In this document: positions 1 to 32,354 of the stretch, one piece after another
Position numbering within the stretch: the stretch's first letter is position 1
Layout: the number at the start of each line of letters is the position of its first letter
NCBI GenBank assembly: GCA_965649685.1
Contig: CBFGLU010000001.1
Location: 1-40,000, forward strand
Origin: an uncultured bacterium
GTDB taxonomy: Bacteria; Patescibacteriota; Saccharimonadia; Saccharimonadales; Saccharimonadaceae
Direction of reading: 5' to 3'
DNA: 40,000 bases
Made by a program: the position numbers and the translations under genes
Notes under the pieces: generated by a model
Seen by the model: only the letters and a program-made list of their open reading frames with translations
Databases searched by the model: none
Told to the model about the DNA's origin: nothing

Positions 1-1715
1 ACAAGTACGGCGTGCCTCGTATCTGCTTCATCAACAAGATCAACCAGACCGGTGGTGACTTCTACAAGTCGCTTGAAACCATTCACACCCGTCTTTCGAA
101 GCATGCGTTGCCAGTCCACTTGCCAATCGGCTTTGAGAAAGACATCAACGGTGTCGTCGACCTGATCGACATGAAAGCCTACACTTACTCGGACTACACC
201 GACAAGGCACTGGTTCCTGGTGACATCCCAGCCGACATGCAGGAAAAGGCCAAGAACGCCCGTAGTTTGCTGGTTGAAGCTGCCGTTGAAGCTGACGACG
301 AACTGATGATGCGCTTCCTCGACGAGGGCGAAGACGCTATCACTACCGACGAGCTGAAGAGCGCGCTACGTAAGCGTATCCTTGCTGGTGACTTCTACCT
401 GGTAACCGGTGGTGATGGTCGTGGTGTGATCGTCGAGAAGGTTCTCGACCTCGTCAGCGACTTCCTGCCGAACCCACTTGACGTAGGTGACACCTGGGGT
501 GTGAATCCTAAGTCTGGCGAAGAGATCAGCCGCAAGCCTGACGCCAGCGAGCCGATGGCCGGTATCGCCTTCAAGATCGCGACCGACCCATTCGTCGGTA
601 AGCTGATCTTCGTCCGTGTCTACTCTGGCACCCTGAAGGCCGGCTCATATGTTCTGAACACCACTACCGGTGAAAAGGAACGTGTCGGACGTATCGTCCG
701 TATGCACGCCGACAAGCGTGAAGACATCGATGAGATCAAGGCTGGTGACATCGCCGCCGTCGTAGGTCTGAAGAGCACCTTCACCGGTCACACCCTTTGT
801 GACGTGGCTAACCCGATTGCACTCGAAAGCATCACTTTCCCAGAGCCACCGGTCGCCATCGCCGTCGAGCCAAAGAGTAAGGCCGACCAGGAAAAGATGG
901 GTATCGCCCTCGGTCGTCTGGCTGAGGAAGACCCTACCTTCCGCGTTCACACCGACGAAGAAACCGGCCAGACCATCATGTCCGGTATGGGTGAGCTGCA
1001 CCTCGACATCTTGATCGACCGTATGAAGCGCGAGTTCAAGGTCGAGGCGAACATCGGTGAGCCACAGGTCGCCTTCCGCGAATCTATCAAGGGTACCAGC
1101 CAGGTTCAGGGTAAGCACGCCAAGCAGTCCGGTGGACGTGGCCAGTACGGTGACGTCTGGGTCCGCTTCGAGCCGAACGAGCCAGGCAAGGGCTTTGAAT
1201 TCTTCGACGAGATCAAGGGTGGTGTGGTTCCGCAGGAATACCGTATGCCGGTCATGAAGGGTATCAAGGATACGCTCGATAGCGGTGTGATCGCCGGCTA
1301 TCCAGTAGTCGATGTGAAGGCGACCCTGTACGACGGTAGCTATCACGACGTCGACTCAAGTGAACTGGCCTTCAGCCTGGCTGGTAGCCTGGCCGCCCGC
1401 GAAGGTGTCAAGCAAGCCAATCCTGTACTGCTCGAGCCTGTCATGCGCGTCGAGGTCACTACTCCTGAGGAATTCATGGGTGATGTGATCGGCGACCTTA
1501 ACTCTCGTCGTGGCCGTATCGAGGCCATGGAAGACCTGGCTGGTGGTGCCAAGCTGATCAAGGCCTTCGTGCCACTCGCGCAGATGTTCGGTTACACCAA
1601 CGACATCCGTTCGATGAGCCAGGGTCGTGCCGCTTCTACCATGGAGCTGGCCCAGTACGAGGAAGTACCACCGAACGTTGCACAGGAGATCATCGAGAAG
1701 CGGGCAAGCAAATAA
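1..1715 (+). CDS. fusA: Elongation factor G, 5'-truncated by the window edge (about 570 C-terminal codons present)
   Basis: The frame is open from the window edge (..KYGVPRICFINK..) to TAA at 1713-1715. EF-G hallmarks are present: IAFKIATDPFVGKLIFVRVYSG, GELHLDILIDRMKREF, GSYHDVDSSELAF. A terminator follows. Confidence 0.95.
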   Translation, partial: KYGVPRICFINKINQTGGDFYKSLETIHTRLSKHALPVHLPIGFEKDINGVVDLIDMKAYTYSDYTDKALVPGDIPADMQEKAKNARSLLVEAAVEADDELMMRFLDEGEDAITTDELKSALRKRILAGDFYLVTGGDGRGVIVEKVLDLVSDFLPNPLDVGDTWGVNPKSGEEISRKPDASEPMAGIAFKIATDPFVGKLIFVRVYSGTLKAGSYVLNTTTGEKERVGRIVRMHADKREDIDEIKAGDIAAVVGLKSTFTGHTLCDVANPIALESITFPEPPVAIAVEPKSKADQEKMGIALGRLAEEDPTFRVHTDEETGQTIMSGMGELHLDILIDRMKREFKVEANIGEPQVAFRESIKGTSQVQGKHAKQSGGRGQYGDVWVRFEPNEPGKGFEFFDEIKGGVVPQEYRMPVMKGIKDTLDSGVIAGYPVVDVKATLYDGSYHDVDSSELAFSLAGSLAAREGVKQANPVLLEPVMRVEVTTPEEFMGDVIGDLNSRRGRIEAMEDLAGGAKLIKAFVPLAQMFGYTNDIRSMSQGRAASTMELAQYEEVPPNVAQEIIEKRASK

Positions 1716-1742
1716 GCCTATCCTATCGCTCCGTTGATTTAT

Positions 1743-1775
1743 GTCACCCGTCATCTGACGGGTGACGTTTTTATT
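1743..1775 (+). terminator. Rho-independent terminator after fusA
   Basis: 10-bp stem gtcacccgtc/gacgggtgac with a 4-nt loop, followed by gtttttatt. Confidence 0.8.
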
Positions 1776-1801
1776 GCAACTATGCGGGAGGCTGGTATAA
1801 T
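1774..1801 (+). promoter_or_regulatory. Sigma70-type promoter of the respiratory module (TTGCAA-16-TGgTATAAT)
   Basis: TTGCAA at 1774-1779, 16-nt spacer, TATAAT at 1796-1801 preceded by TGg. It sits directly after the fusA terminator. Confidence 0.6.
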
Positions 1802-1843
1802 CTTGCTTAAGCTAAACTAAGCGATATTTGCGCGAAGGAAGAC

Positions 1844-2554
1844 ATGAAAACGAAACGAACATTTATCATTCCTGCACTCGCCATGCTGCTAGTGATGGGT
1901 TTGACCGTGCCAGCCTTGGCCCACGAAGGTTCAGACGATACGGTTGTCAGCAATGAGATTGAAACCGAAACTGAAGTTACGACCGGTACGGATGACTCCA
2001 CGATCTCGATCAAGGCTGACGACGACAAGCAGACGAGGCTACAGCGCCAAGCTGAGCGCATCAAGGAGCGTCGAGCGGCCATAGAAGCGAAGCTGGCTGA
2101 GCGTAGGGCCGAGCACAAGGAGCGTCTTGAGGGACGTCGCTTGGCCACGTGCGAGAACCGTGAGCAGCGTATTAACCAGCTGCTTGATAGGAGTGCAGAG
2201 AACGGCAAGCGCCATCTGCAAGTCATCCAGCGGATCGAAGAAGGTATAAAGAAGTTCTACCATGATAAGGCGTTGTCGGCCGATGGGTATGACGCTGCAC
2301 TTGCTGCGGCTGATGAGAGAGAAGCTGACGCTGTAGCGGCTCTTGACGTACTGTCAGACGTCGATTTCGACTGCGCGAATGCGGATGGCCAGAAGCCGGC
2401 CGCCGTGATCGCCTCGGCGGTCCATCAGCGGCACGACGCCCTGAAGGCCTACCGTACGACCGTGAAAGACCTCCTATTGGTCGTGAAGAAGTCGCTGAAC
2501 GATAAGGCCGGAACCAGTACGGACGAGGCTACGAAGCAGGATGGGGAGGTATAG
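1844..2554 (+). CDS. Secreted coiled-coil protein of unknown function (236 aa)
   Basis: SD gaaggaag lies upstream. N-terminal signal peptide MKTKRTFIIPALAMLLVMGLTVPALA/HEG. Charged helical region (RLQRQAERIKERRAAIEAKLAERRAEHKERLEGRR) and two Cys. No family recognised. Confidence 0.75.
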   Translation: MKTKRTFIIPALAMLLVMGLTVPALAHEGSDDTVVSNEIETETEVTTGTDDSTISIKADDDKQTRLQRQAERIKERRAAIEAKLAERRAEHKERLEGRRLATCENREQRINQLLDRSAENGKRHLQVIQRIEEGIKKFYHDKALSADGYDAALAAADEREADAVAALDVLSDVDFDCANADGQKPAAVIASAVHQRHDALKAYRTTVKDLLLVVKKSLNDKAGTSTDEATKQDGEV

Positions 2555-2556
2555 CC

Positions 2557-2814
2557 ATGCGAAGCTATAAGGGATTCTCGATCGTTGAACTTCTGGTCAT
2601 CGTGGGTGTACTGGTATTGATCGGTGGGCTCGGCTTCGTCGCCTGGAAGTCATTCAACAAATCAGCGAACGAGAACGGTACTCCTGTCTCGAATAGTCAG
2701 ACCGCCGAAGTCATAACGACCGAGGAAGATCTGAACGAAGCTGCCAAGCAGCTTGATCAGTTGGATATTGAAGACGAAGACAGTCAGCAGGCCGAAAGCC
2801 AGGCTACGTTTTAG
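2557..2814 (+). CDS. Truncated type IV pilin-like protein (85 aa): prepilin-type N-terminus plus acidic tail
   Basis: Strong SD ggggagg 7 nt upstream. The start is 2 nt after the preceding stop. MRSYKG/FSIVELLVIVGVLVLIGGL fits the class III signal (G/F cleavage, Glu at +5). The remainder is short, acidic and has no globular head. Confidence 0.7.
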   Translation: MRSYKGFSIVELLVIVGVLVLIGGLGFVAWKSFNKSANENGTPVSNSQTAEVITTEEDLNEAAKQLDQLDIEDEDSQQAESQATF

Positions 2815-2820
2815 CAAGAC

Positions 2821-2849
2821 TTGTCCGACAACGGCATAAGCGGTATCAT
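2821..2849 (+). promoter_or_regulatory. Candidate internal promoter in front of cyoA (TTGTCC-17-TATCAT)
   Basis: TTGTCC at 2821-2826, 17-nt spacer, TATCAT at 2844-2849. The ATG at 2860 is only 10 nt downstream and has no SD. Confidence 0.4.
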
Positions 2850-2859
2850 GTAACCACGT

Positions 2860-3750
2860 ATGAAACGTTTCGTGGGGGTGATGATACCGCTTATTATCAT
2901 CGGAGCTTTAGTGATCGGCGGTATCGCGCTCGTGAGCGGAGCTTCGATCGATGCGCTTGATCCAGCCGGTCAGATCGCCGCTCAACAGCGAAAAGTCCTT
3001 ATCCTGACGTTGTTTCTGAGCTCGCTCGTCGTCGTACCGGTATTCACGATGCTTATCGTGTTTGCCATCCGCTACCGTGCGAGCAACCACCGGGCCGAAT
3101 ACCGGCCCGAATGGGGTGAGAATAAGCTGCTGGAAGGTCTTTGGTGGGGTATCCCGATCGCCATCATCGGCGTGCTAGGTGTGGTAACGGTAGTGACGAG
3201 TCATAGCCTCGACCCGTATAAACCGATTGCCAGTGATAAGTCCACGTTGGAAGTGCAGGTCGTCGCTATGCAATGGAAATGGCTGTTCATCTATCCTCAA
3301 TACGACGTCGCGACGTTGAATTACCTGCCGGTAGAGGTTGATCGGCCGATCCATTTCACCCTGACGGCTGACGCACCGATGAGCGCCTTCTGGATTCCGA
3401 AGCTAGGCAGTCAGATTTACGCCATGAACGGCATGCAGTCGGAACTGAACCTGATCGCGAACAAGACAGGTAGCTTTACCGGCTATACTACCAATATCAA
3501 CGGTGAAGGCTACGCCGACATGACCTTTACGCTTAGGTCATATTCGACCGATGATTTCAACGCCTGGCGCAGGCAGGCGAATGCCGTGCCGGCACAGATT
3601 GACTCGCAGACCTACGAGACATTGTCGCAGCCGACCATCGACACCAAACTCCGTACGTATCGCCTGGCGGAAGAAAATCTCTTTGCTACCATAGTGCATG
3701 AACGTATGGATCATTCACACGAACAAATGAAAACCGGAGGGGGACATTGA
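2860..3750 (+). CDS. cyoA: Cytochrome o/bo3-type quinol oxidase subunit II
   Basis: Close to E. coli CyoA as recalled (LDPAGQIAAQQRKVLILT, YRASNHRAEYRPEW, FWIPKLGSQIYAMNGMQSELNLIA). The protein has no cysteine at all, so there are no CuA ligands. This marks a quinol oxidase rather than a cytochrome c oxidase. Confidence 0.9.
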   Translation: MKRFVGVMIPLIIIGALVIGGIALVSGASIDALDPAGQIAAQQRKVLILTLFLSSLVVVPVFTMLIVFAIRYRASNHRAEYRPEWGENKLLEGLWWGIPIAIIGVLGVVTVVTSHSLDPYKPIASDKSTLEVQVVAMQWKWLFIYPQYDVATLNYLPVEVDRPIHFTLTADAPMSAFWIPKLGSQIYAMNGMQSELNLIANKTGSFTGYTTNINGEGYADMTFTLRSYSTDDFNAWRRQANAVPAQIDSQTYETLSQPTIDTKLRTYRLAEENLFATIVHERMDHSHEQMKTGGGH

Positions 3751-5726
3751 TGAACGGTTTCTTCGAATTTCTGATCGGCCGTCTGTCACCTGAGTACTTC
3801 CCGCAGGATCCCGTTACCATAGGGGCTGCGGTCGGCATGCCATTGACGGTGTTATTCATCGCCGGTCTCATAACCTACCTAAAACGCTGGACGTGGCTAT
3901 GGAAGGAGTGGTTGACATCACTGGACGCAAAGAAGATCGGTGTCATGTACGGCATCGTGGCTATCGTCATGTTGCTACGAGGACTGGCGGATGCCGGTAT
4001 GCTGCGACTGCAGACGGCGCTCAGTGCCGGTGATGCCAGCGGGCCGTTCAGTACCGACACCTTCCAGCAAGTATTCACCGCCCATGGCACCATTATGATC
4101 TTCTTCGTGGCCATGGGTCTGATGTTCGCACTGATCAACGTGGTCATGCCGCTCCTCATCGGCGCCCGTGACATGGCGTTTCCTCTGATGAACTCGATCA
4201 GTTTCTGGCTGTTCGCAGCCGGCATGGTATTGATTAACCTGTCGCTACTGTTCGGTGGCTTCTCGAATGCCGGTTGGCTGGGGTACCCACCGTTGACGGA
4301 GTTGGAGTACAACCCAGGGCCTGGCGTCGACTATTGGATATGGTCGCTCCAGATCGCCGGTATCGGCAGCCTGTTGTCCGGAATCAACTTCTTCGTGACG
4401 ATATTGAAGCACCGCGCACCTGGCATGACCATGTTCAAGATGCCGATCTTCCCGTGGAGCGTCCTGGTGACCAGCGTGCTTATCATGCTGGCGTTCCCGA
4501 TCCTGACGGTGACCTTGGCTCTCCTTAGTCTCGACCGTACCATGGGGATGCATTTCTTTACCTCCGACTTGGGCGGGAATCCGATGCTCTACATCAATCT
4601 CATATGGGCGTGGGGTCATCCTGAGGTGTATATCCTGGTACTGCCGGCCTTCGGCATCTTTTCGGAAGTCGTGGCCACGTTCTGTCGCAAGATGCTGTTC
4701 GGTTACCGCACCATGGTCTATGCCTTGATCGCCATCATGCTCCTGTCGTTCATCGTGTGGCAACATCATTTCTTCACCATGGGCGCGGGAGCGAACGTGA
4801 ACGCGTTCTTCGGCATCATGACCATGGTCATCGCCATTCCGACCGGTGTCAAGATCTTCAACTGGCTGTTCACGATGTATCGGGGCCGTATTACGTTCAG
4901 CGCGCCGATGATCTGGTTCTTCGCGTTCGTGGTTACCTTCACGATCGGAGGTGTCAGTGGCGTCATGATGGCCGTGCCCGCGCTCGACTTCCAAGTACAT
5001 AACACGATGTTCCTGGTCGCACACTTCCATAACGTCATAATCGGCGGCGTGGTGTTCGGCTTTTTCGCGGGCATTACGTATTGGTTCCCGAAGGTCTTCG
5101 GCTTCCGTTTGCACGACCGTCTGGGGCGATGGTCGGCCTATGCCTGGCAGCTCGGTTTCATCCTGGCGTTCATTCCGCTCTATATCCTTGGCCTGATGGG
5201 TGCCGTACGCCGGATCGACGACTATAGCGACCCATCGTGGCTACCGTTCTTCATCGTCTCCGGTATCGGCGTGATGGTGGTGGCGTTAGGAGTGGGACTG
5301 TTCTTATTACAAGTGGCTTACAGCATATGGAAGCGCAAGGAGCTGCGTGACACCACCGGTGATCCTTACGACGGCCGTACACTTGAATGGTCGGTGCCGT
5401 CGCCCGCGCCGCACTACAACTTTGCGGTCATTCCGACCGTGACCGAGCGGGATGAATGGTGGTACCGTAAGCAGGCGAAAAAGACCCGGTTGGCACGTGA
5501 TGAGTACAAGGATATATGGCTGCCGAAAAACAGCAGCGTCGGGCTGACCGTAGGCATCTTGTCGGGATTATTCGGATTTGCGATCATCTGGCATCTCTGG
5601 TGGTTGGCGTTGATCTTGCTGGTAGCCGTGGTAGTGGTCATCATTCGTCGGACCCTCGACGATAACGGCGAGTACCGCATTACCGCACAAGAGCTGTACG
5701 AGGAAGCGAACGGAGGACTGGCATGA
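3750..5726 (+). CDS. cyoB: Cytochrome o/bo3-type quinol oxidase subunit I (heme-copper oxidase)
   Basis: Long runs match E. coli CyoB as recalled: YINLIWAWGHPEVYIL, HHFFTMGAGANVNAFFGI, AIPTGVKIFNWLFTMY, HFHNVIIGGVVFG, LLRGLADA. SD ggaggggg lies upstream. The ATG at 3750 overlaps the cyoA TGA. The ORF track starts 3 nt earlier at a TTG. Confidence 0.95.
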   Translation: MNGFFEFLIGRLSPEYFPQDPVTIGAAVGMPLTVLFIAGLITYLKRWTWLWKEWLTSLDAKKIGVMYGIVAIVMLLRGLADAGMLRLQTALSAGDASGPFSTDTFQQVFTAHGTIMIFFVAMGLMFALINVVMPLLIGARDMAFPLMNSISFWLFAAGMVLINLSLLFGGFSNAGWLGYPPLTELEYNPGPGVDYWIWSLQIAGIGSLLSGINFFVTILKHRAPGMTMFKMPIFPWSVLVTSVLIMLAFPILTVTLALLSLDRTMGMHFFTSDLGGNPMLYINLIWAWGHPEVYILVLPAFGIFSEVVATFCRKMLFGYRTMVYALIAIMLLSFIVWQHHFFTMGAGANVNAFFGIMTMVIAIPTGVKIFNWLFTMYRGRITFSAPMIWFFAFVVTFTIGGVSGVMMAVPALDFQVHNTMFLVAHFHNVIIGGVVFGFFAGITYWFPKVFGFRLHDRLGRWSAYAWQLGFILAFIPLYILGLMGAVRRIDDYSDPSWLPFFIVSGIGVMVVALGVGLFLLQVAYSIWKRKELRDTTGDPYDGRTLEWSVPSPAPHYNFAVIPTVTERDEWWYRKQAKKTRLARDEYKDIWLPKNSSVGLTVGILSGLFGFAIIWHLWWLALILLVAVVVVIIRRTLDDNGEYRITAQELYEEANGGLA

Positions 5727-6304
5727 GCGAAGCTGAACGCCTGATGAAGCGAGAGAAGGCAGAGTACGGCTTCTGGCTTTACCTCATGACGGATCTGATA
5801 CTGTTCTCAAGTCTGTTCGCTACCTACGTCATCCTGAAGCACAACACCGTCGGTGCCGGAACTGCCGCGGAACTGCTCGATCCGACTTACGCGCTTATCC
5901 TGACTATCGCACTGCTTACCAGTAGCTTCACGTCGGGCGTGGCTGCCGCCGCGTTCAACTTCGGCATGAAGCGACTCGGTCTCGGGCTTGTCCTGGCCAC
6001 GGTTCTTCTCGGTCTGACGTTCCTGGGCCTGGAACTGGCGGAATTCGCCCATTTGGTGGCGGAAGGTGAGTCGTGGCGTGAGAGTGCCTTTCTCTCCGCG
6101 TTCTTCACTCTTGTCGGTACGCACGGGTTGCACATCACCGTCGGTCTGATCTGGGCGCTGACTCTCATGGTCTACATCATGAAGCGGGGCTTGACGCATA
6201 ACGCCATGCGTAAGTTCGCGCTCTTCACGTACTTCTGGCACTTCCTGGACATCGTATGGATCTTCATCTTCGCGGTGGTATATCTCGCGGGAGGACTGGC
6301 ATGA
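5723..6304 (+). CDS. cyoC: Cytochrome o quinol oxidase subunit III
   Basis: ATGA overlap with cyoB. Five-TM protein with the C-terminal motif FWHFLDIVWIFIF typical of subunit III. Confidence 0.9.
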   Translation: MSEAERLMKREKAEYGFWLYLMTDLILFSSLFATYVILKHNTVGAGTAAELLDPTYALILTIALLTSSFTSGVAAAAFNFGMKRLGLGLVLATVLLGLTFLGLELAEFAHLVAEGESWRESAFLSAFFTLVGTHGLHITVGLIWALTLMVYIMKRGLTHNAMRKFALFTYFWHFLDIVWIFIFAVVYLAGGLA

Positions 6305-6672
6305 ACGGGTTGGATCGAGAATTCAAGAAGCTGCTGGCCGTATATGTGATCGGTTTTGCCGCCGCGTTGCTGCTGAGCGTGGTGAGTTATCTGATGGTGA
6401 TGGACGGATGGTTCGCGACCGACTGGATGACGATGATAGCCTTACTGGTGCTAGCAGTCATTCAGCTTGTCATTCAGCTCGTCTGCTTCTTGCATCTGCG
6501 GCCAGACCGAGACGCCTTCTCACGGACCGGTACCTTCATCTTCGCCGTCGGAACGGTTTTGATCATCGTGGTTGGTTCGATATGGATCATGAAGAACCTT
6601 GATTATCGTATGCATATGACACCGGAATCGATGCTCAAGTATATGTCGGAGCAGAACAAGAAAGGCTTTTAA
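6301..6672 (+). CDS. cyoD: Cytochrome o quinol oxidase subunit IV
   Basis: ATGA overlap with cyoC (ATG at 6301). 123-aa three-TM protein in the conserved cyoABCD position. The 6256 start in the ORF track overlaps cyoC and is not favoured. Confidence 0.8.
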   Translation: MNGLDREFKKLLAVYVIGFAAALLLSVVSYLMVMDGWFATDWMTMIALLVLAVIQLVIQLVCFLHLRPDRDAFSRTGTFIFAVGTVLIIVVGSIWIMKNLDYRMHMTPESMLKYMSEQNKKGF

Positions 6673-6675
6673 GGG

Positions 6676-7545
6676 ATGATAGGCGATTACTACCGGTTGA
6701 CGAAGCCGGGTATCATCAAAGGTAACCTTATTCATGTGCTGGCCGGCTTGTTGTTCGCCCATGCCTATGGATTCTCGTGGCAAGCGGTAGTGGGGGTCGT
6801 CGCCGGTACGGTGCTTATCATTGCTTCGGCCTGCGTGGTAAACAATTACACCGACCGTGGTATTGATGCACGCATGAAGCGGACCAAGACCCGCGCGTCC
6901 GTCACCGGAGCCGTCACGCCGCGTAACGCCATGCTGTTCGCGACCGTTCTGTTTGTGGCCGGCATGACTCTTTTAATTAGCCTGACAAACCTGCTGGTCG
7001 TCATCATCGGGCTGGTGGCGTACGTCTTTTACGTCTTCATCTATGCGGTCGCCAAGCGTACCACGGTGCACAGCACGCTTGTCGGCGCTATTCCGGGCGC
7101 GTTGCCGGCGATGGCAGGGTATGTGGCGTTGAGCGGTCGGCTCGATCTGGCCGCATGGTTGATCTTCCTGCTCGTCCTGGTATGGCAGATGCCCCATTTC
7201 TATGCCATCTCTATCTTTCGGCGCGATGAATACAAGGCGGCCGGCTTACCGGTGTTGGGTGTCGTCAAAGGCTTTGACCAAGTACGCTGGCATATGGGCG
7301 CGTACCTGGCGTTATACGTGCTTGTCGTACTGCTTATCATCGTCAGCGGATCGATCAATCTGCTGGGCGGTGCCGTGTTGCTCATGGCCGCGTTGTATTG
7401 GGTGAGGGCGTACCTACGACCGGTTCATGACCAAGTCAAATGGGCAAAAACGGTTTTCGGTACGTCGTTGCTATTGACGATGACATTGTTGCTCGCGGTC
7501 GCACTCGATGCTGTGACTCCCGGGCTGACTACGTTACAATGGTAA
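6676..7545 (+). CDS. cyoE: Protoheme IX farnesyltransferase (heme O synthase, UbiA family)
   Basis: Polytopic membrane protein with the NNYTDRGIDARMKRTKTRA (NxxxDxxxD) prenyltransferase motif. It immediately follows cyoD. Confidence 0.9.
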   Translation: MIGDYYRLTKPGIIKGNLIHVLAGLLFAHAYGFSWQAVVGVVAGTVLIIASACVVNNYTDRGIDARMKRTKTRASVTGAVTPRNAMLFATVLFVAGMTLLISLTNLLVVIIGLVAYVFYVFIYAVAKRTTVHSTLVGAIPGALPAMAGYVALSGRLDLAAWLIFLLVLVWQMPHFYAISIFRRDEYKAAGLPVLGVVKGFDQVRWHMGAYLALYVLVVLLIIVSGSINLLGGAVLLMAALYWVRAYLRPVHDQVKWAKTVFGTSLLLTMTLLLAVALDAVTPGLTTLQW

Positions 7546-7574
7546 GGAATCAAGAGAGGAACAAACATCACGAC

Positions 7575-8750
7575 ATGACCCATAATCTGAACGTAACCAT
7601 CGTTGGTGGTGGCTTCGGCGGCGTGAAGGCGGCGCTTGAACTGGCCAAGGAGCCCACTGCCCGTATCACCCTGATTTCCGATAAACCTGATTTCCAGTAC
7701 TATCCAGCTTTGTTCGCGACCGCGACGGGTCACAGTCATCGTGAGTCATGGGTGCCTCTGCAAGAAATATTCGCCGGACACAAGAACGTCACGTTGGTGC
7801 AAGACACCATCGAAACCATCGACACGGAAGCGAAGGTGCTGAAGGGCAAGGATGCGTATCATTACGAAGAAGTCATCCTGGCACTGGGCAGCGTGACCAC
7901 CTATTTCGGTATCGAAGGGCTGGATACCTACGCGTACGGCATCAAGTCCCAAGATGAAATCCGACGTCTTCAGCAGCATCTGTGGGATGAAATGAGCGAT
8001 GGTAGCGATGACGAGAAGAACTATGTCATCATCGGGGCCGGACCAACCGGGGTCGAGCTTGCTGGTGCCTTAGGTGAATACCTGCGGACGCTCCGCCAAC
8101 ACTTCGGTATCCGCAAGAAACGGTTACGTATCAGCCTGATCGAGGCGGCGCCACGCGTGCTGCCGCGACTTTCCGAGCATACCAGCAAGGTGGTACACGC
8201 ACGCCTGACGGAGCTCGGCATCCATGTCGAGACCAACAAGAAAGTCGAGCGCCAGACGGCCGACAGCCTGATCGTGAACGGCAAGCCACTGACGACGCAG
8301 ACGGTCATCTGGACTTCCGGGGTGGCCAACGCACCGTTCTACAAGGCGAACGAGGCACAGTTCGATCTGAATGACCGTGGCAAGGTCAAGGTTGACGAGT
8401 TCATGCGATCGAGCGCCCATGTCTATGTCATCGGTGATAACGCCAATACGCCATATGCCGGGCTGGCTCAGACCGCCCTGCACGACGCCATCTTCGTGGC
8501 CAAGCATCTGAAAGGCTCAAAGAAGCCCTACAAAGTGGTGCCGCCGCCGTCGGTCGTACCGGTCGGCCACCATTGGGCCGTATTCGAGTGGGGCAAGCTT
8601 CGCTTCAGCGGCTTACCGGCCGCCTTCATGCGCAGTGCCGCCGATATCATTGGCTATCACGACGTCCTACCCATAGGATGGGCGTTCAAGGCGTGGCGGG
8701 CCCAGTCGATCAAAGAGCTGCGCGTTCCGTCCGCCGTCTCTGACGAATAG
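7575..8750 (+). CDS. ndh: Type II NADH dehydrogenase (NDH-2)
   Basis: Two dinucleotide folds are present: VTIVGGGFGGV near the N-terminus and YVIIGAGPTGVELAG. The start is uncertain. ATG 7575 is preferred, ATG 7539 is possible, and the 7440 start in the ORF track would overlap cyoE by about 100 nt. Confidence 0.85.
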   Translation: MTHNLNVTIVGGGFGGVKAALELAKEPTARITLISDKPDFQYYPALFATATGHSHRESWVPLQEIFAGHKNVTLVQDTIETIDTEAKVLKGKDAYHYEEVILALGSVTTYFGIEGLDTYAYGIKSQDEIRRLQQHLWDEMSDGSDDEKNYVIIGAGPTGVELAGALGEYLRTLRQHFGIRKKRLRISLIEAAPRVLPRLSEHTSKVVHARLTELGIHVETNKKVERQTADSLIVNGKPLTTQTVIWTSGVANAPFYKANEAQFDLNDRGKVKVDEFMRSSAHVYVIGDNANTPYAGLAQTALHDAIFVAKHLKGSKKPYKVVPPPSVVPVGHHWAVFEWGKLRFSGLPAAFMRSAADIIGYHDVLPIGWAFKAWRAQSIKELRVPSAVSDE

Positions 8751-8758
8751 GTTTTAAC

Positions 8759-8779
8759 GGGTCGAATATGACCCCTTTA
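8759..8779 (+). terminator. Weak hairpin after ndh (possible terminator)
   Basis: 5-bp stem gggtc/gaccc with a 6-nt loop, followed by cttta. Weak. Confidence 0.3.
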
Positions 8780-8804
8780 CCACATCCGAAGAACCATGTA
8801 TAAT
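8776..8804 (+). promoter_or_regulatory. Candidate tuf promoter (TTTACC-17-TATAAT)
   Basis: TTTACC at 8776-8781, 17-nt spacer, TATAAT at 8799-8804 preceded by TG. Confidence 0.5.
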
Positions 8805-8877
8805 TAACCATATTGCGTTGCGAGGTATTTTACGACTGCGCGCTAAATATAACTATTTAAAGGAGAATAAATCTCAA

Positions 8878-10059
8878 ATGGCAGATTTCGACCGAAGCAA
8901 GCCGCACGTCAACGTTGGTACCATGGGTCACGTTGACCACGGTAAGACAACCCTAACCGCAGCAATCACTCACGTGCTTGCCAAGAAGCTTCCAAGCGAC
9001 GTCAACGTTCCTCGTAACTACGAAGACATCGACAACGCTCCAGAAGAAAAGGCTCGTGGTATTACCATCGCCTCATCTCACCAGGAATACGAGTCTGAAG
9101 CTCGTCACTACGCTCACGTAGACATGCCTGGTCACGCCGACTACGTTAAGAACATGATCACCGGTGCCGCCCAGGTTGACGGTGCGATCCTGGTAGTTGC
9201 CGCAACCGACGGTCCATTGCCACAGACCCGCGAGCACGTTCTGCTTGCCAAGCAGGTCGGTGTGCCTAAGATCGTTGTCTTCCTGAACAAGATGGACATC
9301 GCTGACCCAGAGCTCGTTGAGCTGGTCGAAATGGACATCCGCGAACTGCTGGCGAAGAACGGCTTCGACGAAGACGCTCCTATCATCAAGGGTTCTGCGA
9401 CCAAGGCTCTCGAAGGCGACGCTGCCTACGAAGACGCCATCATGGAACTGGTCAAGGCTCTGGACGACTACGTACCTGAACCACCACGCGACATGGACAA
9501 GCCATTCCTGATGCCTATCGAGGACGTCTTCTCGATCAAGGGTCGTGGTACGGTTGCTACCGGTCGTATCGAAACCGGTGTCATCAAGCTGAACGACGAA
9601 GTTGAAATCGTCGGTGTGCGCGATACCCAGAAGTCAGTCGTTACCGGCATCGAGGCCTTCAAGAAGAACCTCGACCAAGGTCAGGCAGGTGACAACGCCG
9701 GTCTGCTGCTTCGTGGTATCGAGCGCGAGCAGATTGAGCGCGGCCAGGTCATCGCCAAGCCAGGTTCGATCACTCCTCACACCGAGTTCGAAGCTGAAGT
9801 CTACATCCTGAAGAAGGAAGAAGGTGGTCGTCACACCCCATTCTCAAAGGGTTACAAGCCACAGTTCTACTTCCGTACCACCGACGTTACCGGTGAGGTT
9901 GAACTGCCAGCTGACAAGGAAATGGTCATGCCTGGTGACACCATCACCTTCGTCGTGAAGCTGCTTGCTCCTATCGCTATGGAGCAGGGTCTGAACTTCG
10001 CGATCCGCGAAGGTGGCCGCACCGTCGGTGCCGGCGTCGTGACCAAGATTACCAAGTAA
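8878..10059 (+). CDS. tuf: Elongation factor Tu
   Basis: [32 protein letters not shown] motifs are canonical (DMPGH, NKMD, SATKAL). SD aaaggag lies upstream of ATG 8878. The 8818 extension in the ORF track is rejected. Confidence 0.97.
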
Positions 10060-10080
10060 TCACGGTTCACACCTATGAAA

Positions 10081-10109
10081 ACACCCCGAGCGATCGGGGT
10101 GTTTCTTTA
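10081..10109. terminator. Bidirectional rho-independent terminator between tuf and the convergent 105-aa gene
   Basis: 9-bp stem acaccccga/tcggggtgt with A-run and T-run flanks on either side. Confidence 0.8.
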
Positions 10110-10126
10110 TGAGAATTATCCGAATG

Positions 10127-10444
10127 CTATTCGGCGTTGTCGTGATCGAAGCGCTGGCCTAATCGAACCGTCAATTCAGGGGGCTGTACGGTTTCGTTTA
10201 GGGCCAGACTGACCACACGTCCCGCGTCTATCCGACGAGTCACGATTTCAGGGTATTCGCGTAACATCCGTAAGGCCACCTTATCGGTCTTGAGCATAGG
10301 CGCGGTAAATTCGGTGATATCCGGGTCATTGATCACTTCTTCGTTGATGCGGCTGAGCACCGACAAGGCAAGTTGTTTCTTGACATGTTCGACATGCAAA
10401 AAGCGTTCACGACGTCGATTGTGTTCGTAGGATAGCGCACTCAT
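10127..10444 (-). CDS. Hypothetical cytoplasmic protein (105 aa), no recognisable family
   Basis: Clean ORF convergent on tuf. A promoter -10 box lies 6 nt upstream of the ATG. There is no TM segment or signal peptide. Confidence 0.6.
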   Translation of the reverse strand: MSALSYEHNRRRERFLHVEHVKKQLALSVLSRINEEVINDPDITEFTAPMLKTDKVALRMLREYPEIVTRRIDAGRVVSLALNETVQPPELTVRLGQRFDHDNAE

Positions 10445-10450
10445 AATTGT

Positions 10451-10479
10451 ATTATAGCATAAACATAATGAATAAGCAA
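10451..10479 (-). promoter_or_regulatory. Promoter of the 105-aa gene: TTGCTT-17-(TGc)TATAAT, then 6 nt to the ATG (predicted leaderless)
   Basis: Minus strand reads cTTGCTTattcattatgtttaTGcTATAATacaattATG. Confidence 0.6.
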
Positions 10480-10480
10480 G

Positions 10481-10509
10481 TTTACAGATACGACCTCTTA
10501 TGCTATGCT
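10481..10509 (+). promoter_or_regulatory. Candidate rpsJ promoter (TTTACA-17-TGcTATGCT)
   Basis: TTTACA at 10481-10486, 17-nt spacer, TATGCT at 10504-10509 preceded by TGc. An approximately 100-nt leader with SD aagaggag precedes ATG 10615. Confidence 0.45.
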
Positions 10510-10614
10510 AATTCGGTATAACAATTGTGTTGACAACTTGACCAGACATGAGCTGCCGTCGCGCATGACATGAATCGAGCCAAGGTTACGACACGCCAAT
10601 AAAGAGGAGTCATA

Positions 10615-10932
10615 ATGGCCAAAGAAGAAGGTCTGCGGATTCGTATCCGTCTCAAAGCATACGATCACAAGGTGATCGATCAGTCAGCAAAGCAAATCAT
10701 CGACACGGCTGTGCGCACTGGTGCGTCAATCGCCGGTCCGGTACCACTGCCTACCCGCAAGAGCACTTTCACGGTGATCAAGAGCCCGCACGTTTACAAG
10801 ACCGGTGGTGAAAGCTTCGAGATGCGCGTCCATAAGCGTCTGATCGACATTACCAACGCGACCCCGAAAACCATCGACAGCCTGCAGAACCTTAGCTTGC
10901 CTGCTGGTGTCGATGCCGAAATCCGTATGTAG
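10615..10932 (+). CDS. rpsJ: 30S ribosomal protein S10 (NusE)
   Basis: [26 protein letters not shown]...GPVPLPTRK...[20 protein letters not shown] is canonical S10. Confidence 0.97.
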
Positions 10933-10950
10933 TCAGTAGACTTCATCTGA

Positions 10951-10979
10951 AAACCGCCTCTTATGAGAGGCGGTTTTTT
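10951..10979. terminator. Bidirectional rho-independent terminator directly after rpsJ
   Basis: aaaccgcctct-tatg-agaggcggttt (11 bp) followed by a T-run. The A-run on the other side serves the convergent minus-strand gene. Confidence 0.85.
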
Positions 10980-10993
10980 AGTAATTGACGTAG

Positions 10994-11302
10994 TTAGTTT
11001 TTCTTCTTGTCGTCGACCGGTTGCACGTAGGTGCTTTCGGTGTCAGCCTGGGTGGCCTCGATCTTATCATAGATCGACTGAATGTCGCTCTGAAGGCGCA
11101 GGATCCAGATCGAGAACAGTACGACGACGGTACCGAGTACCAGCCAGTATACGGTCTGCCGTGTCAGGCGGAAGGTCATGAACTCACCGTTATCAGGTGT
11201 AAGCACGACGCCTGAAGCCTTCGCAGGGGCTTTCTTCGCAGCCGGGCGCTTGACCGGCTTCTTAGTTGCTGTTTTCTTGGTTGGGGTCTTTTTCGTAGCC
11301 AT
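10994..11302 (-). CDS. Small single-pass membrane protein with a Lys/Pro/Ala/Thr-rich basic N-terminal tail (102 aa)
   Basis: [29 protein letters not shown], then one TM segment ([18 protein letters not shown]), then a short helical C-terminus. The ORF track begins at TTG 11317. ATG 11302 is preferred. Confidence 0.6.
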
Positions 11303-11308
11303 GCATAT

Positions 11309-11317
11309 AGTATACAA
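11309..11317 (-). promoter_or_regulatory. -10 element TTGTATACT placed 6 nt upstream of ATG 11302 (predicted leaderless)
   Basis: Minus strand reads gcgTTGTATACTatatgcATG. This parallels gcgTTGTAAAATagaggcATG at 28561. Confidence 0.45.
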
Positions 11318-11320
11318 CGC

Positions 11321-11349
11321 TTGTGCTTACATCACGTGTTTATTACAAT
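11321..11349 (+). promoter_or_regulatory. Candidate promoter TTGTGC-17-TACAAT, 11 nt upstream of ATG 11361
   Basis: TTGTGC at 11321-11326, 17-nt spacer, TACAAT at 11344-11349. No SD before the ATG. Confidence 0.45.
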
Positions 11350-11360
11350 GAAAATGATTC

Positions 11361-11702
11361 ATGACGAAACAAACAGGCAAAAGAACGCCATCTACCCAAC
11401 GTAAGACGGTCAGACAAACAACCTCTCAGTCGAAGCGGCTGCACGAGCGTGTCTTTGAAAGTGACGGTACCTACTTCCTGAAACTGGTATTGGTATTCCT
11501 ACTGGCTACCTTCTGGGTAAAATTCGGCACCCCATTTTCTTTAGGCGGGTTAGTCTTCACGGCCGTACCGGTCGGATTGCTGATCGGCATCCTGCTGGTG
11601 CGGATATTTGAGAAGCATCAGGCCGATCGGAAGATCTGGTATGCGCTTCTCATCGTCGTTGCCGTCATCACGTTCTACGACCCGTCCGGTATCGTCATCT
11701 AA
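11361..11702 (+). CDS. Small polytopic membrane protein with a basic N-terminal tail (113 aa)
   Basis: MTKQTGKRTPSTQRKTVRQTTSQSKRLHER followed by three hydrophobic segments. No family recognised. Confidence 0.6.
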   Translation: MTKQTGKRTPSTQRKTVRQTTSQSKRLHERVFESDGTYFLKLVLVFLLATFWVKFGTPFSLGGLVFTAVPVGLLIGILLVRIFEKHQADRKIWYALLIVVAVITFYDPSGIVI

Positions 11703-11716
11703 GCGCGGACTACCTC

Positions 11717-11746
11717 TTGACGTAAGGGGTATAAATGTGCTACGAT
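11717..11746 (+). promoter_or_regulatory. Candidate promoter of the rplC-led ribosomal operon (TTGACG-18-TGcTACGAT)
   Basis: TTGACG at 11717-11722 and TACGAT at 11741-11746 preceded by TGc. Confidence 0.5.
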
Positions 11747-11757
11747 TAAACGGTAAC

Positions 11758-11771
11758 TTATTACGTAATAA
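11758..11771. repeat. Perfect 14-bp palindrome TTATTACGTAATAA in the rplC leader or operator position
   Basis: The sequence is self-complementary and lies about +6 to +19 from the predicted transcription start. Confidence 0.6.
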
Positions 11772-11802
11772 CAACTCGTTCCTGTGCGAATTGGTAGGTC
11801 CA

Positions 11803-11832
11803 CTCCGGAAACCACCAGCCGCCGGGGATTTT
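11803..11832 (+). promoter_or_regulatory. Attenuator-like hairpin plus U-run in the rplC leader
   Basis: cuccgg (11803-11808) pairs with ccgggg (11822-11827) across a 13-nt loop, followed by aUUUU. It sits just upstream of SD gggagaaaagaagg. Confidence 0.3.
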
Positions 11833-11851
11833 AAGTGGGAGAAAAGAAGGC

Positions 11852-12466
11852 ATGAAAGCACTTCTCGGTACCAAGATTGGTATGACCCAGATCCTAGCTG
11901 AAGACGGGACCGCAACGCCGGTTACCCTTATTCAAGCTGGCCCTGTCACCGTGACTCAGGTGAAGTCCGTCGAAGCCGACGGCTACAACGCGGTACAGGT
12001 TGCATTCGGATCGGGTAAGAACCTGAGCAAGGCCGTCGCTGGACACGTTAAGTCCAGCAAAGTATCTCCGAAGTATATTCGGGAATTCCGCGTCGAAGAA
12101 CTGCCAGCCGACCTGAAGGTCGGTGACCAGATCGACGTAAGTGCATTCGCACTCGGTGACCACGTCGACGCGACGGGCACCTCGAAGGGTAAGGGTTTCG
12201 CCGGAACGGTGAAGCGTCACAACTTCAATACCAGCAAGAAGACCCACGGTGGTAACGGTAACGTCCGTAAGCCGGGTTCGATCGGATCGATGTATCCGCA
12301 GAAGGTCTTCAAGGGTAAGCGCATGGCCGGCCGTATGGGCGGTGAGCGTGTGACCGTGAAGAACCTCGAAGTCGCCTATGTCGACAGCGAGAACAACCTG
12401 ATCGGTCTGAAGGGTGCAGTGCCTGGCCCACGCAAGAGTCTGATCATCATCGGAGGTAACGCGTAA
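11852..12466 (+). CDS. rplC: 50S ribosomal protein L3
   Basis: MKALLGTKIGMTQI...; conserved operon position. Confidence 0.97.
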   Translation: MKALLGTKIGMTQILAEDGTATPVTLIQAGPVTVTQVKSVEADGYNAVQVAFGSGKNLSKAVAGHVKSSKVSPKYIREFRVEELPADLKVGDQIDVSAFALGDHVDATGTSKGKGFAGTVKRHNFNTSKKTHGGNGNVRKPGSIGSMYPQKVFKGKRMAGRMGGERVTVKNLEVAYVDSENNLIGLKGAVPGPRKSLIIIGGNA

Positions 12467-13083
12467 TGGCTGAGACTACCAAAGCAACTACTCCGACCCT
12501 GCCGAAGAGCGTCTTCGGTGTCGAGGTCGACAACCATGAGCTGCTGAAGCTCGCCTACGACAGCTACCTGGCAAACGGCCGTTCGGCTCACGCTCGTACG
12601 CTGGAACGAGGCGACGTCCGTGGTGGTGGTAAGAAGCCATGGAAGCAGAAGGGTACTGGTCGTGCACGTTTCGGTTCGACTCGTAACCCAATCTGGCGTG
12701 GTGGTGGTGTCGTATTCGGCCCGACCGGCAACGAGAACCACACCAAGCGCCTGAGCACCACTTCGAAGCGCGTCGCCGTTTCGCAAGCGCTCTCGCTCGC
12801 CAACAAGGCGAAGAAAATCGTCTTGAAGGATGTCAAGACCACCGGTAAGACCGCCGAGATCGTCAAGTTCCTGGAAGCTAACAAGCTTGACCGCAAGGTA
12901 CTGATCGTCGTCGACGAGAAGACGCCGGAGCTGATCCGTGCTACCAGCAACCTGCAGAACGTTCTACTGGTTCGTAGCACCTACCTGAGTGTCTACCACA
13001 TCCTGAACGCCGACCACATCGTGTTGGCACCTGCCAGCGTCAAGACCATCGAAGCATGGCTGACCGGAAAGGAGACTAAGTAA
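12466..13083 (+). CDS. rplD: 50S ribosomal protein L4
   Basis: GGGKKPWKQKGTGRARFGSTRNPIWRGGGVVFGP; start overlaps the rplC stop. Confidence 0.97.
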   Translation: MAETTKATTPTLPKSVFGVEVDNHELLKLAYDSYLANGRSAHARTLERGDVRGGGKKPWKQKGTGRARFGSTRNPIWRGGGVVFGPTGNENHTKRLSTTSKRVAVSQALSLANKAKKIVLKDVKTTGKTAEIVKFLEANKLDRKVLIVVDEKTPELIRATSNLQNVLLVRSTYLSVYHILNADHIVLAPASVKTIEAWLTGKETK

Positions 13084-13403
13084 TGAGTATCCTTATTACC
13101 CCACGGGCGACCGAGAAGGCCTACGGCCAGAGTCAGAAGAACGTGTATGTCTTCAACGTACCACTCGACGCCAACAAGCAGCAGATCGCCGACGCGGTCA
13201 GCGCGCAGTACGACGTCAAGGTCGCCAACGTAGCTACCGCCGTCCAGGCTGGTAAGGCTATCCGCTACTCACGTGGCAAGAAGCGCTACCCAGGCACGAC
13301 CAACCGTAAGGACACTAAGAAGGCCTATGTCACCCTGAGTGAAGGCAGTTCGATCCAGATCTTCGAGCAGCCTGCCGAACAAGCAGCAGAGGAGAAGAAG
13401 TAA
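13083..13403 (+). CDS. rplW: 50S ribosomal protein L23
   Basis: Operon position and L23-like sequence (ITPRATEKAY...). Acidic C-terminal tail. Confidence 0.93.
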   Translation: MSILITPRATEKAYGQSQKNVYVFNVPLDANKQQIADAVSAQYDVKVANVATAVQAGKAIRYSRGKKRYPGTTNRKDTKKAYVTLSEGSSIQIFEQPAEQAAEEKK

Positions 13404-14242: not shown

Positions 14243-14245
14243 TTT

Positions 14246-14916: not shown

Positions 14917-14919
14917 CAT

Positions 14920-32136: not shown

Positions 32137-32147
32137 CAGCAACATGT

Positions 32148-32233: not shown

Positions 32234-32246
32234 TTTCGGAAAATGT

Positions 32247-32322: not shown

Positions 32323-32354
32323 TTTTCATGCCGCTGGCATTTTACCTAAAATCG

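Follow-up and report, generated by a model that had tools for sequence, protein, structure and literature searches.

Gene content and signals of the fusA-tuf region

The DNA analysed here, a stretch of 40,000 nucleotides (the window), contains eight genes between fusA and tuf: orfX1, orfX2, the quinol oxidase genes cyoABCD, the heme O synthase gene cyoE, and ndh. (Table 1.) All genes lie on the + strand, and all reading frames of the module are intact. An earlier note on this DNA had named the respiratory genes correctly. The start of ndh was set at 7575, where the gene calls of a near-identical contig begin; a longer ORF from 7440 overlaps cyoE. The product of the partial fusA gene is 91-94% identical to the EF-G of two relatives (L001 and L090).

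Table 1. Genes and sequence signals of the fusA-tuf region (positions in the window)
Feature	Position	Strand	Remarks
fusA (EF-G), partial, 3' 567 codons	12..1715	+	Pfam EFG_III, EFG_IV, EFG_C; upstream flank
Intrinsic-terminator-like hairpin and T-run 3' of fusA	1741..1775	+	stem 12 bp, 7 G-C pairs
Promoter-like site 5' of orfX1	1774..1801	+	TTGCAA-16-TGgTATAAT, 10/12 matches
orfX1	1844..2554	+	exported helical protein, restricted to lineage
orfX2	2557..2814	+	85 aa, one transmembrane helix
Promoter-like element directly 5' of cyoA	2821..2849	+	TTGTCC-17-TATCAT
cyoA, quinol oxidase subunit II without CuA site	2860..3750	+	TIGR01433
cyoB, heme-copper oxidase subunit I	3750..5726	+	match to PDB 1fft, 8f68
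cyoC, subunit III	5723..6304	+	TIGR02842 CyoC, 204 bits
cyoD, subunit IV	6301..6672	+	TIGR02847; also called as gene in L081
cyoE, heme O synthase (protoheme IX farnesyltransferase)	6676..7545	+	TIGR01473
ndh, type II NADH:quinone oxidoreductase	7575..8750	+	NDH-2 structures are best PDB matches
Promoter-like site of tuf	8776..8804	+	TTTACC-17-TATAAT, 10/12 matches
tuf (EF-Tu)	8878..10059	+	Pfam GTP_EFTU, D2, D3; downstream flank

The hairpin downstream of fusA (1741-1768) is followed by TTTTTATT. A hairpin with a different stem sequence occupies the same place after fusA in L092 and L090. When 10 kb were scanned for promoter-like sequences, the top two matches fell exactly in the two intergenic gaps. 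The TATAAT box of the site preceding orfX1 is kept in L092, L090 and L001, and the sequence CTTTAC-N17-TGTATAAT upstream of tuf is kept in L092, L090, L086, L089, L088 and L082, irrespective of the upstream cargo. The terminator after fusA, the promoter following it and the separate tuf promoter proposed in the earlier note are thus borne out by the hairpin with its T-run and by the two 10/12 promoter-like matches. Directly in front of cyoA both hexamers of the promoter-like element are kept in L081, L092, L090 and L001, while the neighbouring non-coding DNA diverges. No Shine-Dalgarno sequence was found upstream of the cyoA ATG.

The two genes preceding cyoA encode putative exported proteins, as had been noticed before. 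Judged by eye, OrfX1 begins with a Sec-type signal peptide; it also contains two invariant Cys residues. Pfam and NCBIfam gave no match, and a search of 5.8 billion proteins yielded only 8 homologues; in the examined contexts all of these are encoded between fusA and cyoA. Its AF2 model is a helical bundle (pLDDT 75), for which no fold match was found in the PDB. Besides its single transmembrane helix, OrfX2 has a prepilin-like N-terminus (KGFSIVELLV) and weak NCBIfam matches to prepilin-peptidase-dependent proteins; orthologues occur in L092, L090, L094 and L001. The pair is a later, lineage-specific addition 5' of the conserved cyoA promoter, and these lineage-restricted exported proteins are a new, minor element of the locus.

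Oxidase subunits, heme O synthase and NDH-2

For all four oxidase subunits the best matches were Cyo models, which ranked above the Qox and Cta models. CyoD alone passes its cut-off (85.5 bits, TIGR02847 cut-off 81.45). CyoA scored 257.8 bits against TIGR01433 (cut-off 266.2), ranking above QoxA and CoxB, CyoB 992 bits (NCBIfam cut-off 1020) and CyoC 204 bits (cut-off 224). CyoA contains no Cys and lacks the motif H-x(30-45)-CxExC-x3-H-x2-M. Since the CuA ligands are missing, the enzyme is predicted to oxidise quinol rather than cytochrome c, in agreement with the earlier note. Subunit II of E.coli bo3 also lacks a CuA site; unlike E.coli CyoA, the CyoA of the window has no lipobox Cys.

CyoB matched subunit I of E.coli bo3 (PDB 1fft, 8f68) with 840 bits. 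Identity to E.coli CyoB is 56%, with no identical run longer than 18 residues. As in the E.coli enzyme, all ligands of heme b, heme o3 and CuB (H106, H421, H419, H284, H333 and H334) are present together with the cross-linked Tyr288, and so are the residues of the D-channel (D135, N124, N142, E286) and of the K-channel (K362, T359). All these residues are invariant in the window's CyoB and 31 CPR CyoB sequences. In the high-affinity quinone site three of the four residues are kept (R71, D75, Q101), but H98, present in E.coli bo3, is replaced by Thr. All of the clade with the module in the fusA-tuf slot has Thr or Met at position 98, whereas His98 was invariant in the 50 non-CPR CyoB sequences examined (mostly proteobacterial); B. 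subtilis QoxB also has His. Because of the replacement, quinol binding may differ from the E.coli model. The substitution of the quinol-site His98 by Thr or Met in this clade is a second minor point that is new.

CyoE scored 238.1 bits against TIGR01473 (cyoE_ctaB), above the equivalog cut-off of 210.3. Ndh did not match any of the curated NCBIfam equivalog models. Its best PDB matches were the bacterial NDH-2 enzymes B. subtilis YjlD (9pxk), C. thermarum (4nwz) and S. aureus (5na1), to which it is similar over nearly the full length, if distantly (E about 1e-34 to 1e-37). It has two Rossmann GxGxxG motifs, GGGFGG and GAGPTG. In what we take to be the quinone motif, AQxAxQ, the second Gln is His (AQTALH, read by eye). 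Identity to the protein annotated as Ndh in RAAC3_TM7_1 is 68%. The operon order cyoABCDE is that of E.coli, whose cyo operon does not have ndh fused into the cluster.

Host, relatives and ancestry of the module

Judged by its EF-Tu, whose nearest homologues are all from Saccharimonadales wherever they are named (95% identity to Ca. Mycosynbacter amalyticus), the host is assigned to the Saccharimonadales (CPR). No L30 gene was found between rpsE and rplO. Both observations fit the CPR-like host suggested previously.

At least six relatives, each assembled independently, also have the fusA|cyoABCDE-ndh|tuf layout (L081, L092, L090/L091, L094 with a 962-kb contig, L001 and L093). In contrast to the window, about 25 other Saccharibacteria loci examined have a cyo operon that adjoins neither fusA nor tuf, indicating that the slot location is specific to one subclade. 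Some relatives have lost the module, have kept ndh alone, or carry other cargo in the slot. The earlier note had regarded the fusA-tuf junction as normally tight. In this clade it never is: the junction was open in every relative examined, six relatives with EF-Tu 95-97% identical contain six different cargoes, and in every case a conserved promoter-like site of its own precedes tuf. The gap is a variable slot for accessory genes across this Saccharimonadales clade.

A cyoABCDE-ndh cluster at this site has been public since 2013, when the first environmental Saccharibacteria (TM7) genome, RAAC3_TM7_1, was described (Kantor et al., PMC3812714). The window shares with it the six genes in identical order with NDH-2 adjoining the oxidase operon, Thr at the position of His98, and fusA upstream and tuf downstream, as seen in L093, which carries the layout and encodes a protein identical to RAAC3_TM7_1 Ndh. 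The window differs by the additional orfX1 and orfX2 between fusA and cyoA. Identity between window and L093 is 75% for CyoB, 68% for Ndh and 44-53% for the other subunits. In gene order, flanks and host group the locus is thus a module of the RAAC3_TM7 type. The combination of Ndh, cytochrome bo3 oxidase and protoheme IX farnesyltransferase is likewise found in Ca. Teamsevenus rhizospherense and soil CPR (Starr 2018, PMC6031116; Nicolas 2021, PMC8407418).

In the CyoB tree the slot-encoded sequences were monophyletic (91% bootstrap) within a CPR clade, and CPR sequences were separate from those of Proteobacteria. CyoB is 74-88% identical to Saccharibacteria relatives and 55-63% to Proteobacteria; the nearest relatives of both CyoB and Ndh are all Saccharibacteria, and the 120 nearest Ndh homologues are from Saccharibacteria or Patescibacteria wherever named. 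The ndh genes of the slot form one clade, within which the genomes with ndh only are nested. The trees are single-gene neighbour-joining trees with modest support (59-74%) at deep nodes, and repeated loss is implied by an EF-G tree that was midpoint-rooted without an outgroup.

The composition of the module was that of its host. Codon usage correlated with that of the other non-ribosomal genes of the window (r = 0.965), the tetranucleotide correlation (r = 0.91) was the same as for any other stretch of the window, and GC content was uniform throughout. GC3 of the module follows the host in genomes of 55% and 45% GC; in the 45%-GC relative it matches that of the flanking genes in the same genome. 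Compared with the near-identical contig (98.4% identical in DNA), the module has 111 synonymous and 16 non-synonymous differences (pN/pS 0.045), and purifying selection is strong on all four oxidase subunits. No tRNA genes, Rfam elements or flanking repeats were detected at the module borders, and neither Pfam nor NCBIfam identified an integrase or transposase among the ten genes scanned (eight of the module, two flanking it). On the basis of the native composition, the lack of border marks and the CPR origin of the nearest homologues, the reading as a mobile element or an island of recent origin was rejected.

Alternative explanations and proposed role

The earlier note had proposed lateral acquisition. 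As a recent event this would mean that a respiratory island from Proteobacteria or Actinobacteria was inserted at an otherwise tight junction. The cluster does separate genes that are neighbours in the canonical str order, it has a promoter and a terminator to itself, its CyoB is more than half identical to that of E.coli, and the published CyoB tree suggests at least one transfer into the CPR, acquisition from other bacteria being followed by spread within the group (PMC8407418). Nevertheless a recent event is very improbable: position and gene order are shared by at least six diverged lineages, one of them RAAC3-like, the junction is open in every relative examined, the closest CyoB and Ndh are from Saccharibacteria, codon and tetranucleotide usage is native, and the borders carry no tRNA gene or repeat and, among the ten genes scanned, no integrase or transposase. 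The CPR-internal phylogeny of CyoB and Ndh is one half of the outcome that the note itself had named as speaking against its proposal, and the codon and tetranucleotide comparison it suggested gave the usage of the host. Given this phylogeny, the shared position and the host-like composition, any transfer from non-CPR bacteria would have been ancient, as already published (PMC8407418). The module is an ordinary inherited feature of the lineage and not a fresh insertion. That a cyo contig of proteobacterial origin and a ribosomal contig of a CPR bacterium were fused during assembly has a negligible probability. Only the unusual location favours it, against which stand the uniform GC content, an independent ENA assembly that stays colinear for 15,288 bp (98.4% identity), and the same joins obtained by different pipelines (Logan, ENA, NCBI), including the 962-kb contig; the question of continuity across both module junctions is thereby answered.

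It is also extremely unlikely that the genes are decaying relics. The substitution at His98 and the three subunits scoring just under the curated cut-offs could be read in this way, but the frames are intact, pN/pS is low, neither the metal ligands nor the residues of the proton channels vary, and the promoters are conserved. Rather doubtful, yet clearly the most plausible of these alternatives, is a purely protective use, in which the oxidase scavenges O2 for a fermentative epibiont without meaningful energy conservation. Because the remaining metabolism is fermentative, Kantor et al. interpreted the RAAC3_TM7_1 cluster as a means of scavenging O2 in which NDH-2 supplies the electrons (PMC3812714). 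Reliance on scavenged quinone and heme would restrict electron flux, and the cluster is under-represented in animal-associated lineages and over-represented in natural and engineered environmental habitats (PMC8406219, PMC11659515). Scavenging alone, however, would not need pumping, whereas the six D- and K-channel residues are strictly kept across the CPR; purifying selection acts strongly on all four subunits, and surveys report co-occurrence with an F-type ATPase (PMC8407418, PMC12592800). O2 scavenging and energy conservation are, moreover, not mutually exclusive.

We therefore consider it highly probable that the locus is the cyoABCDE-ndh module already described for environmental Saccharibacteria, here in a Saccharimonadales genome, inherited in the slot and encoding an NADH-to-O2 chain. 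Its vertical inheritance between fusA and tuf probably goes back to a time before the RAAC3_TM7 lineage branched off. The enzymatic activities, quinone type, cofactor scavenging and physiological role are predictions. NDH-2 would move electrons from NADH to a membrane quinone, and CyoABCD, a predicted bo3-type A-family heme-copper oxidase, would oxidise the quinol and reduce O2 to water. Proton pumping by CyoABCD is expected because the D and K channels are intact. CyoE would farnesylate imported heme b to heme o.

The source of quinone, heme and farnesyl-PP, raised in the earlier note, is a real question that has already been treated in published work on relatives. Neither quinone nor heme synthesis was detected in the genomes of Ca. 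Teamsevenus rhizospherense and soil CPR, and the authors propose that the cofactors are scavenged, quinone and heme b being taken from a host bacterium or the environment (PMC6031116, PMC8407418). By these accounts the organism, unlike E.coli, would make neither ubiquinone nor heme. The literature on the module (PMC3812714, PMC6031116, PMC8407418, PMC8406219, PMC11659515) thus precedes the present analysis: the module itself, the cofactor-source question, the idea of O2 scavenging and the old transfer into the CPR have all been published (Kantor 2013, Starr 2018, Nicolas 2021, Jaffe 2021). In the organism studied here the chain would regenerate NAD+, add to the proton-motive force and consume O2.

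Gene content and integrity of the respiratory module

The genes and signals of the fusA-tuf region are listed in the table. The gene calls and the layout proposed in the earlier note were borne out with a single correction: ndh starts at 7575 and not at 7440, the start of an ORF overlapping cyoE. The same start was called in the near-identical ENA contig L081. The hairpin 3' of fusA and the promoter-like site following it (1741-1768 and 1774-1801) agree with the terminator and new promoter described there, and the site at 8776-8804 with the restart of tuf from its own promoter. As also claimed, CyoA contains no cysteine and lacks the CuA motif, and rplO directly follows rpsE, the L30 gene being absent between them.

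Features of the fusA-tuf region (coordinates refer to the window)
Feature	Position	Strand	Remarks
fusA, 3' part	12-1715	+	
12-bp hairpin with 7 G-C pairs, then TTTTTATT	1741-1768	+	3' of fusA
Promoter-like site TTGCAA-16-TGgTATAAT	1774-1801	+	
orfX1	1844-2554	+	no family match
orfX2	2557-2814	+	no confident family assignment; prepilin-like N-terminus
cyoA	2860-3750	+	
cyoB	3750-5726	+	
cyoC	5723-6304	+	
cyoD	6301-6672	+	
cyoE	6676-7545	+	
ndh	7575-8750	+	pyridine-nucleotide oxidoreductase
Second promoter-like site	8776-8804	+	ahead of tuf
tuf	8878-10059	+	

For all four oxidase subunits the Cyo models ranked first in NCBIfam, above the Qox and Cta models. CyoE passed the NCBIfam cut-off for heme O synthase, and the top solved-structure matches of the ndh product were bacterial NDH-2 enzymes. 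CyoB aligned with subunit I of the E. coli bo3 oxidase with 840 bits and 56% identity, the longest identical run being 18 residues. The functions predicted from sequence for the module genes are supported.

Two other explanations of the locus, a chimeric assembly and a relic, were considered. L081, which comes from an independent assembly, is colinear with positions 1-15,288 at 98.4% nucleotide identity and crosses both module junctions. This rules out an assembly artefact, and the chimera considered in the earlier note is not supported. Between the window and L081 the eight module genes differ by 111 synonymous and 16 non-synonymous substitutions (pN/pS 0.045), and the heme and copper ligands, Tyr288 (E. 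coli numbering) and the residues of the D- and K-channels are invariant in the window and in 31 CPR CyoB sequences, which makes a relic very unlikely.

The fusA-tuf gap and the descent of the module

The nearest 120 EF-Tu sequences listed (93-100% identity) come from Saccharimonadales/Saccharibacteria wherever the source is named, and include that of Ca. Mycosynbacter amalyticus (95% identical to the window's). In a species-level genome collection the closest CyoB-encoding loci were Saccharibacteria MAGs (60-79% identity), with Proteobacteria ranking next (55-63%). EF-Tu of the window is 97% identical to its counterparts in module-less genomes but 92-93% identical to those of the module-carrying loci L090, L093 and L094. 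L090 is the relative closest to the window by EF-G, S10 and L3. The EF-Tu comparison with these loci showed no recombination breakpoint, and the discordance with the other markers is probably due to long branches or unequal evolutionary rates.

The earlier note took the fusA-tuf junction to be tight and the insertion of the module to point to lateral acquisition. The gap contents were read upstream of tuf in six relatives with EF-Tu 95-97% identical to that of the window, and different cargo was found, which contradicts a tight junction. The Mycosynbacter-like loci L082 and L083, which lack cyo in this slot, carried a gene for a Na+/H+ exchanger plus a 178-aa ORF. An ORF of 295 aa was found together with a CdiA_C toxin domain in L084 and L085. 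L086 and L089 combined DUF5671 with an ndh orthologue, L087 had six genes, one of them for a peptidase M16, and L088 a lone ORF of 188 aa. Regardless of what lies upstream, the compared genomes kept the tuf promoter, CTTTAC-N17-TGTATAAT. A fusA-proximal hairpin was also present in L092 and L090, its stem sequence differing between loci. The rpsG-fusA, tuf-rpsJ and rpsJ-rplC junctions also hold variable genes, and the operon is tight from rplC on. Since the cargo varies, the tuf promoter is conserved and the neighbouring junctions are variable too, the fusA-tuf gap is a tolerated slot for accessory genes between separate transcription units in this Saccharimonadales clade.

At these four junctions the cargo differs from genome to genome among related Saccharimonadales (window 10060-11851; loci L082-L094); examples are a CdiA_C toxin, beta-lactamase, VanY, N_methyl pilins, a Na/H exchanger, peptidase M16, a DEAD helicase and an AAA protein. 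The fillers in the window, ORFs 10127-10444 (-), 10994-11317 (-) and 11361-11702 (+), are without family match. In the spc operon adk and map usually follow secY; in the window a sortase gene (21994-22680) lies directly 3' of secY, and infA is next at 22835-23083.

The order fusA/orfX1-orfX2-cyoABCDE-ndh/tuf was found to be identical in four further lineages: L092 (CyoB 88% identical), L090/L091 (86%), L094 (79%, on a 962-kb contig) and L001 (79%, GC 45%, the contig stopping within ndh). The RAAC3-like locus L093 has fusA/cyoABCDE-ndh/tuf without the two small ORFs, and encodes a protein identical to the NCBI-named Ndh of RAAC3_TM7_1, an environmental Saccharibacteria genome. About 25 other Saccharibacteria cyo loci adjoin neither fusA nor tuf, therefore the slot location marks one subclade.

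In neighbour-joining analysis the slot-encoded CyoB sequences formed a single clade (91% bootstrap), with CyoB of L002, whose cyo locus lies elsewhere in the genome, as its sister (100%). The split between the CPR CyoB sequences and those of Proteobacteria and Simkaniaceae had modest support (59-74%). The corresponding trees of CyoA, CyoC and CyoE, proteins too short or divergent for this purpose, did not recover a CPR-only split (bootstrap 1-23%); their nearest neighbours were all CPR. The slot ndh genes form one clade, and the nearest 120 Ndh homologues listed (64-100% identity) are from CPR wherever named. Because the Ndh proteins of the two ndh-only slot genomes, L086 and L089, nest within the full-module clade, the tree suggests that cyoABCDE was secondarily lost from their slots.

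The ndh genes of these two loci (L086 8723-9889, L089 7842-9011) are orthologous at 66-70% identity and accompanied by DUF5671, in a slot without cyo; in L086 tuf follows ndh directly, and in L089 a minus-strand Zn-peptidase gene intervenes. Saccharibacteria-type CyoB, nesting inside the Saccharibacteria clade, was also encountered in L011 (DATLCF010000002, a 557-kb contig labelled Nevskiaceae) and in L024 (labelled Binatia). Both loci have 51% GC, and these bins are probably mislabelled or contaminated.

The composition of the module is that of its host. GC content is level throughout the window. The codon usage of the module correlates with that of the window's other non-ribosomal genes with r = 0.965 (ribosomal genes against the same set, 0.805), and for tetranucleotides the module correlates with the remainder of the window at 0.91, within or above the range of other segments. 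Module GC3 is 0.42-0.47 in L001 and 0.65-0.75 in the window, the flanking genes being alike in both. When the borders were scanned for tRNA genes, Rfam elements and flanking repeats nothing relevant was found, and mobile-element marks were rejected. All four tRNA genes found sit at 32-39 kb. Three of them, tRNA-Thr(TGT), tRNA-Tyr and tRNA-Thr(GGT), cluster at 32060-32322, immediately upstream of an ORF with an L33 domain (32157-32609); since this long ORF overlaps tRNA genes, the true start of rpmG lies further downstream.

The position shared with relatives, the CPR-internal CyoB and the native composition leave lateral acquisition unsupported as a recent event. The module is inherited vertically within one Saccharimonadales subclade, and any transfer from outside CPR is older than the radiation of the Saccharibacteria cyo operons, a view already put forward on the basis of a CyoB tree (PMC8407418).

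The quinol site and the sequences upstream of cyoA

In CyoB of the window, Thr occupies the position corresponding to E. coli His98 (around nt 4065); the slot-carrying clade, its RAAC3-like member included, has Thr or Met there without exception. Across Saccharibacteria H, T, M, Q or L occupies this position. The histidine is found in the E. coli bo3 and B. subtilis aa3-600 (QoxB) enzymes, in five Parcubacteria-type sequences and in each of the 50 CyoB sequences examined from outside CPR, most of them proteobacterial. The quinol-site residues R71, D75 and Q101 are retained in the window. We consider it improbable that the site was remodelled for a scavenged host quinone (e.g. menaquinone from Actinobacteria) instead of ubiquinone made by the cell itself, with orfX1 and orfX2 helping to take quinone, heme or copper from the surface of the host or to pass them on. 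The substitution is subclade-wide and matters to anyone expressing or assaying these oxidases.

Searches of Pfam and NCBIfam with orfX1 gave no match. Its family has eight members, and every context examined lies between fusA and cyoA. The protein has a signal peptide and two invariant Cys. AlphaFold models it confidently as a helical bundle. The best PDB match, a FAT-domain-like generic bundle, had E = 0.25, and no function was assigned. The N-terminus of orfX2 resembles that of type IV prepilins (KGFSIVELLV); the L001 orthologue has a plain transmembrane helix only. A prepilin-like gene was sought by regular expression in about 27 CPR cyo loci, all but the last four being covered, and stood beside cyoA only in the window; the idea that such a gene generally accompanies cyo was dismissed.

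A clade-conserved promoter-like element, TTGTCC-17-TATCAT (2821-2849), ends 10 nt 5' of the cyoA ATG. Because of this distance and the absence of a Shine-Dalgarno sequence at the cyoA start, the sequence suggests a short-leader or leaderless cyoA transcript. The conservation of the element also means that orfX1-orfX2 may be a separate transcription unit. A perfect 14-bp inverted repeat (2836-2849/2881-2894) spans the cyoA start, its left arm coinciding with the conserved -10 region; a conserved hairpin was rejected, as the right arm is not preserved in L090 and L001.

Predicted respiration and its place in the CPR

The module is predicted to encode a minimal chain from NADH to O2. NDH-2 would reduce a membrane quinone, the bo3-type oxidase, with its pumping channels intact, would oxidise the quinol and reduce O2, and CyoE would turn heme b into heme o. 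The main benefit could be NAD+ regeneration, proton-motive force or O2 removal. Kantor et al. (2013; PMC3812714) reported for RAAC3 TM7 that the ubiquinol oxidase operon is complete and has a type II NDH next to it, and proposed oxygen scavenging. Scavenging as the sole role is made less likely by the strictly conserved pumping residues. A CcdA/DsbD-like membrane protein is encoded together with a thioredoxin-fold protein at 27360-28561 (-); the pair may form a system for extracytoplasmic thiol reduction, of possible importance for life with oxygen.

According to further studies, a soil Saccharibacterium encodes ndh, cyo and protoheme IX farnesyltransferase and lacks quinone and heme synthesis, scavenging of both being proposed (Starr et al. 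2018; PMC6031116); cyo operons occur in soil Saccharibacteria, Parcubacteria and Doudnabacteria, with lateral acquisition inferred (Nicolas et al. 2021; PMC8407418); and the operon is present in more than half of environmental Saccharibacteria (Jaffe et al. 2021, PMC8406219; 2024 genome collection, PMC11659515). The respiratory module and the questions of the earlier note are already known, and are the existing questions of the field. No comment on the fusA-tuf position was found in the cited passages; it is visible in public genomes. New minor points are the His98 substitution, the conserved promoter-like element of cyoA, and orfX1/orfX2.

The fusA-tuf position is inherited in one Saccharimonadales subclade and lies in a generally variable slot; it does not speak for a recent transfer. 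The wider question goes back to 2013 and recurs in several genome surveys: it asks if borrowed quinone and heme allow some ultra-small CPR epibionts to respire. To this the window adds one more example, and no new question.
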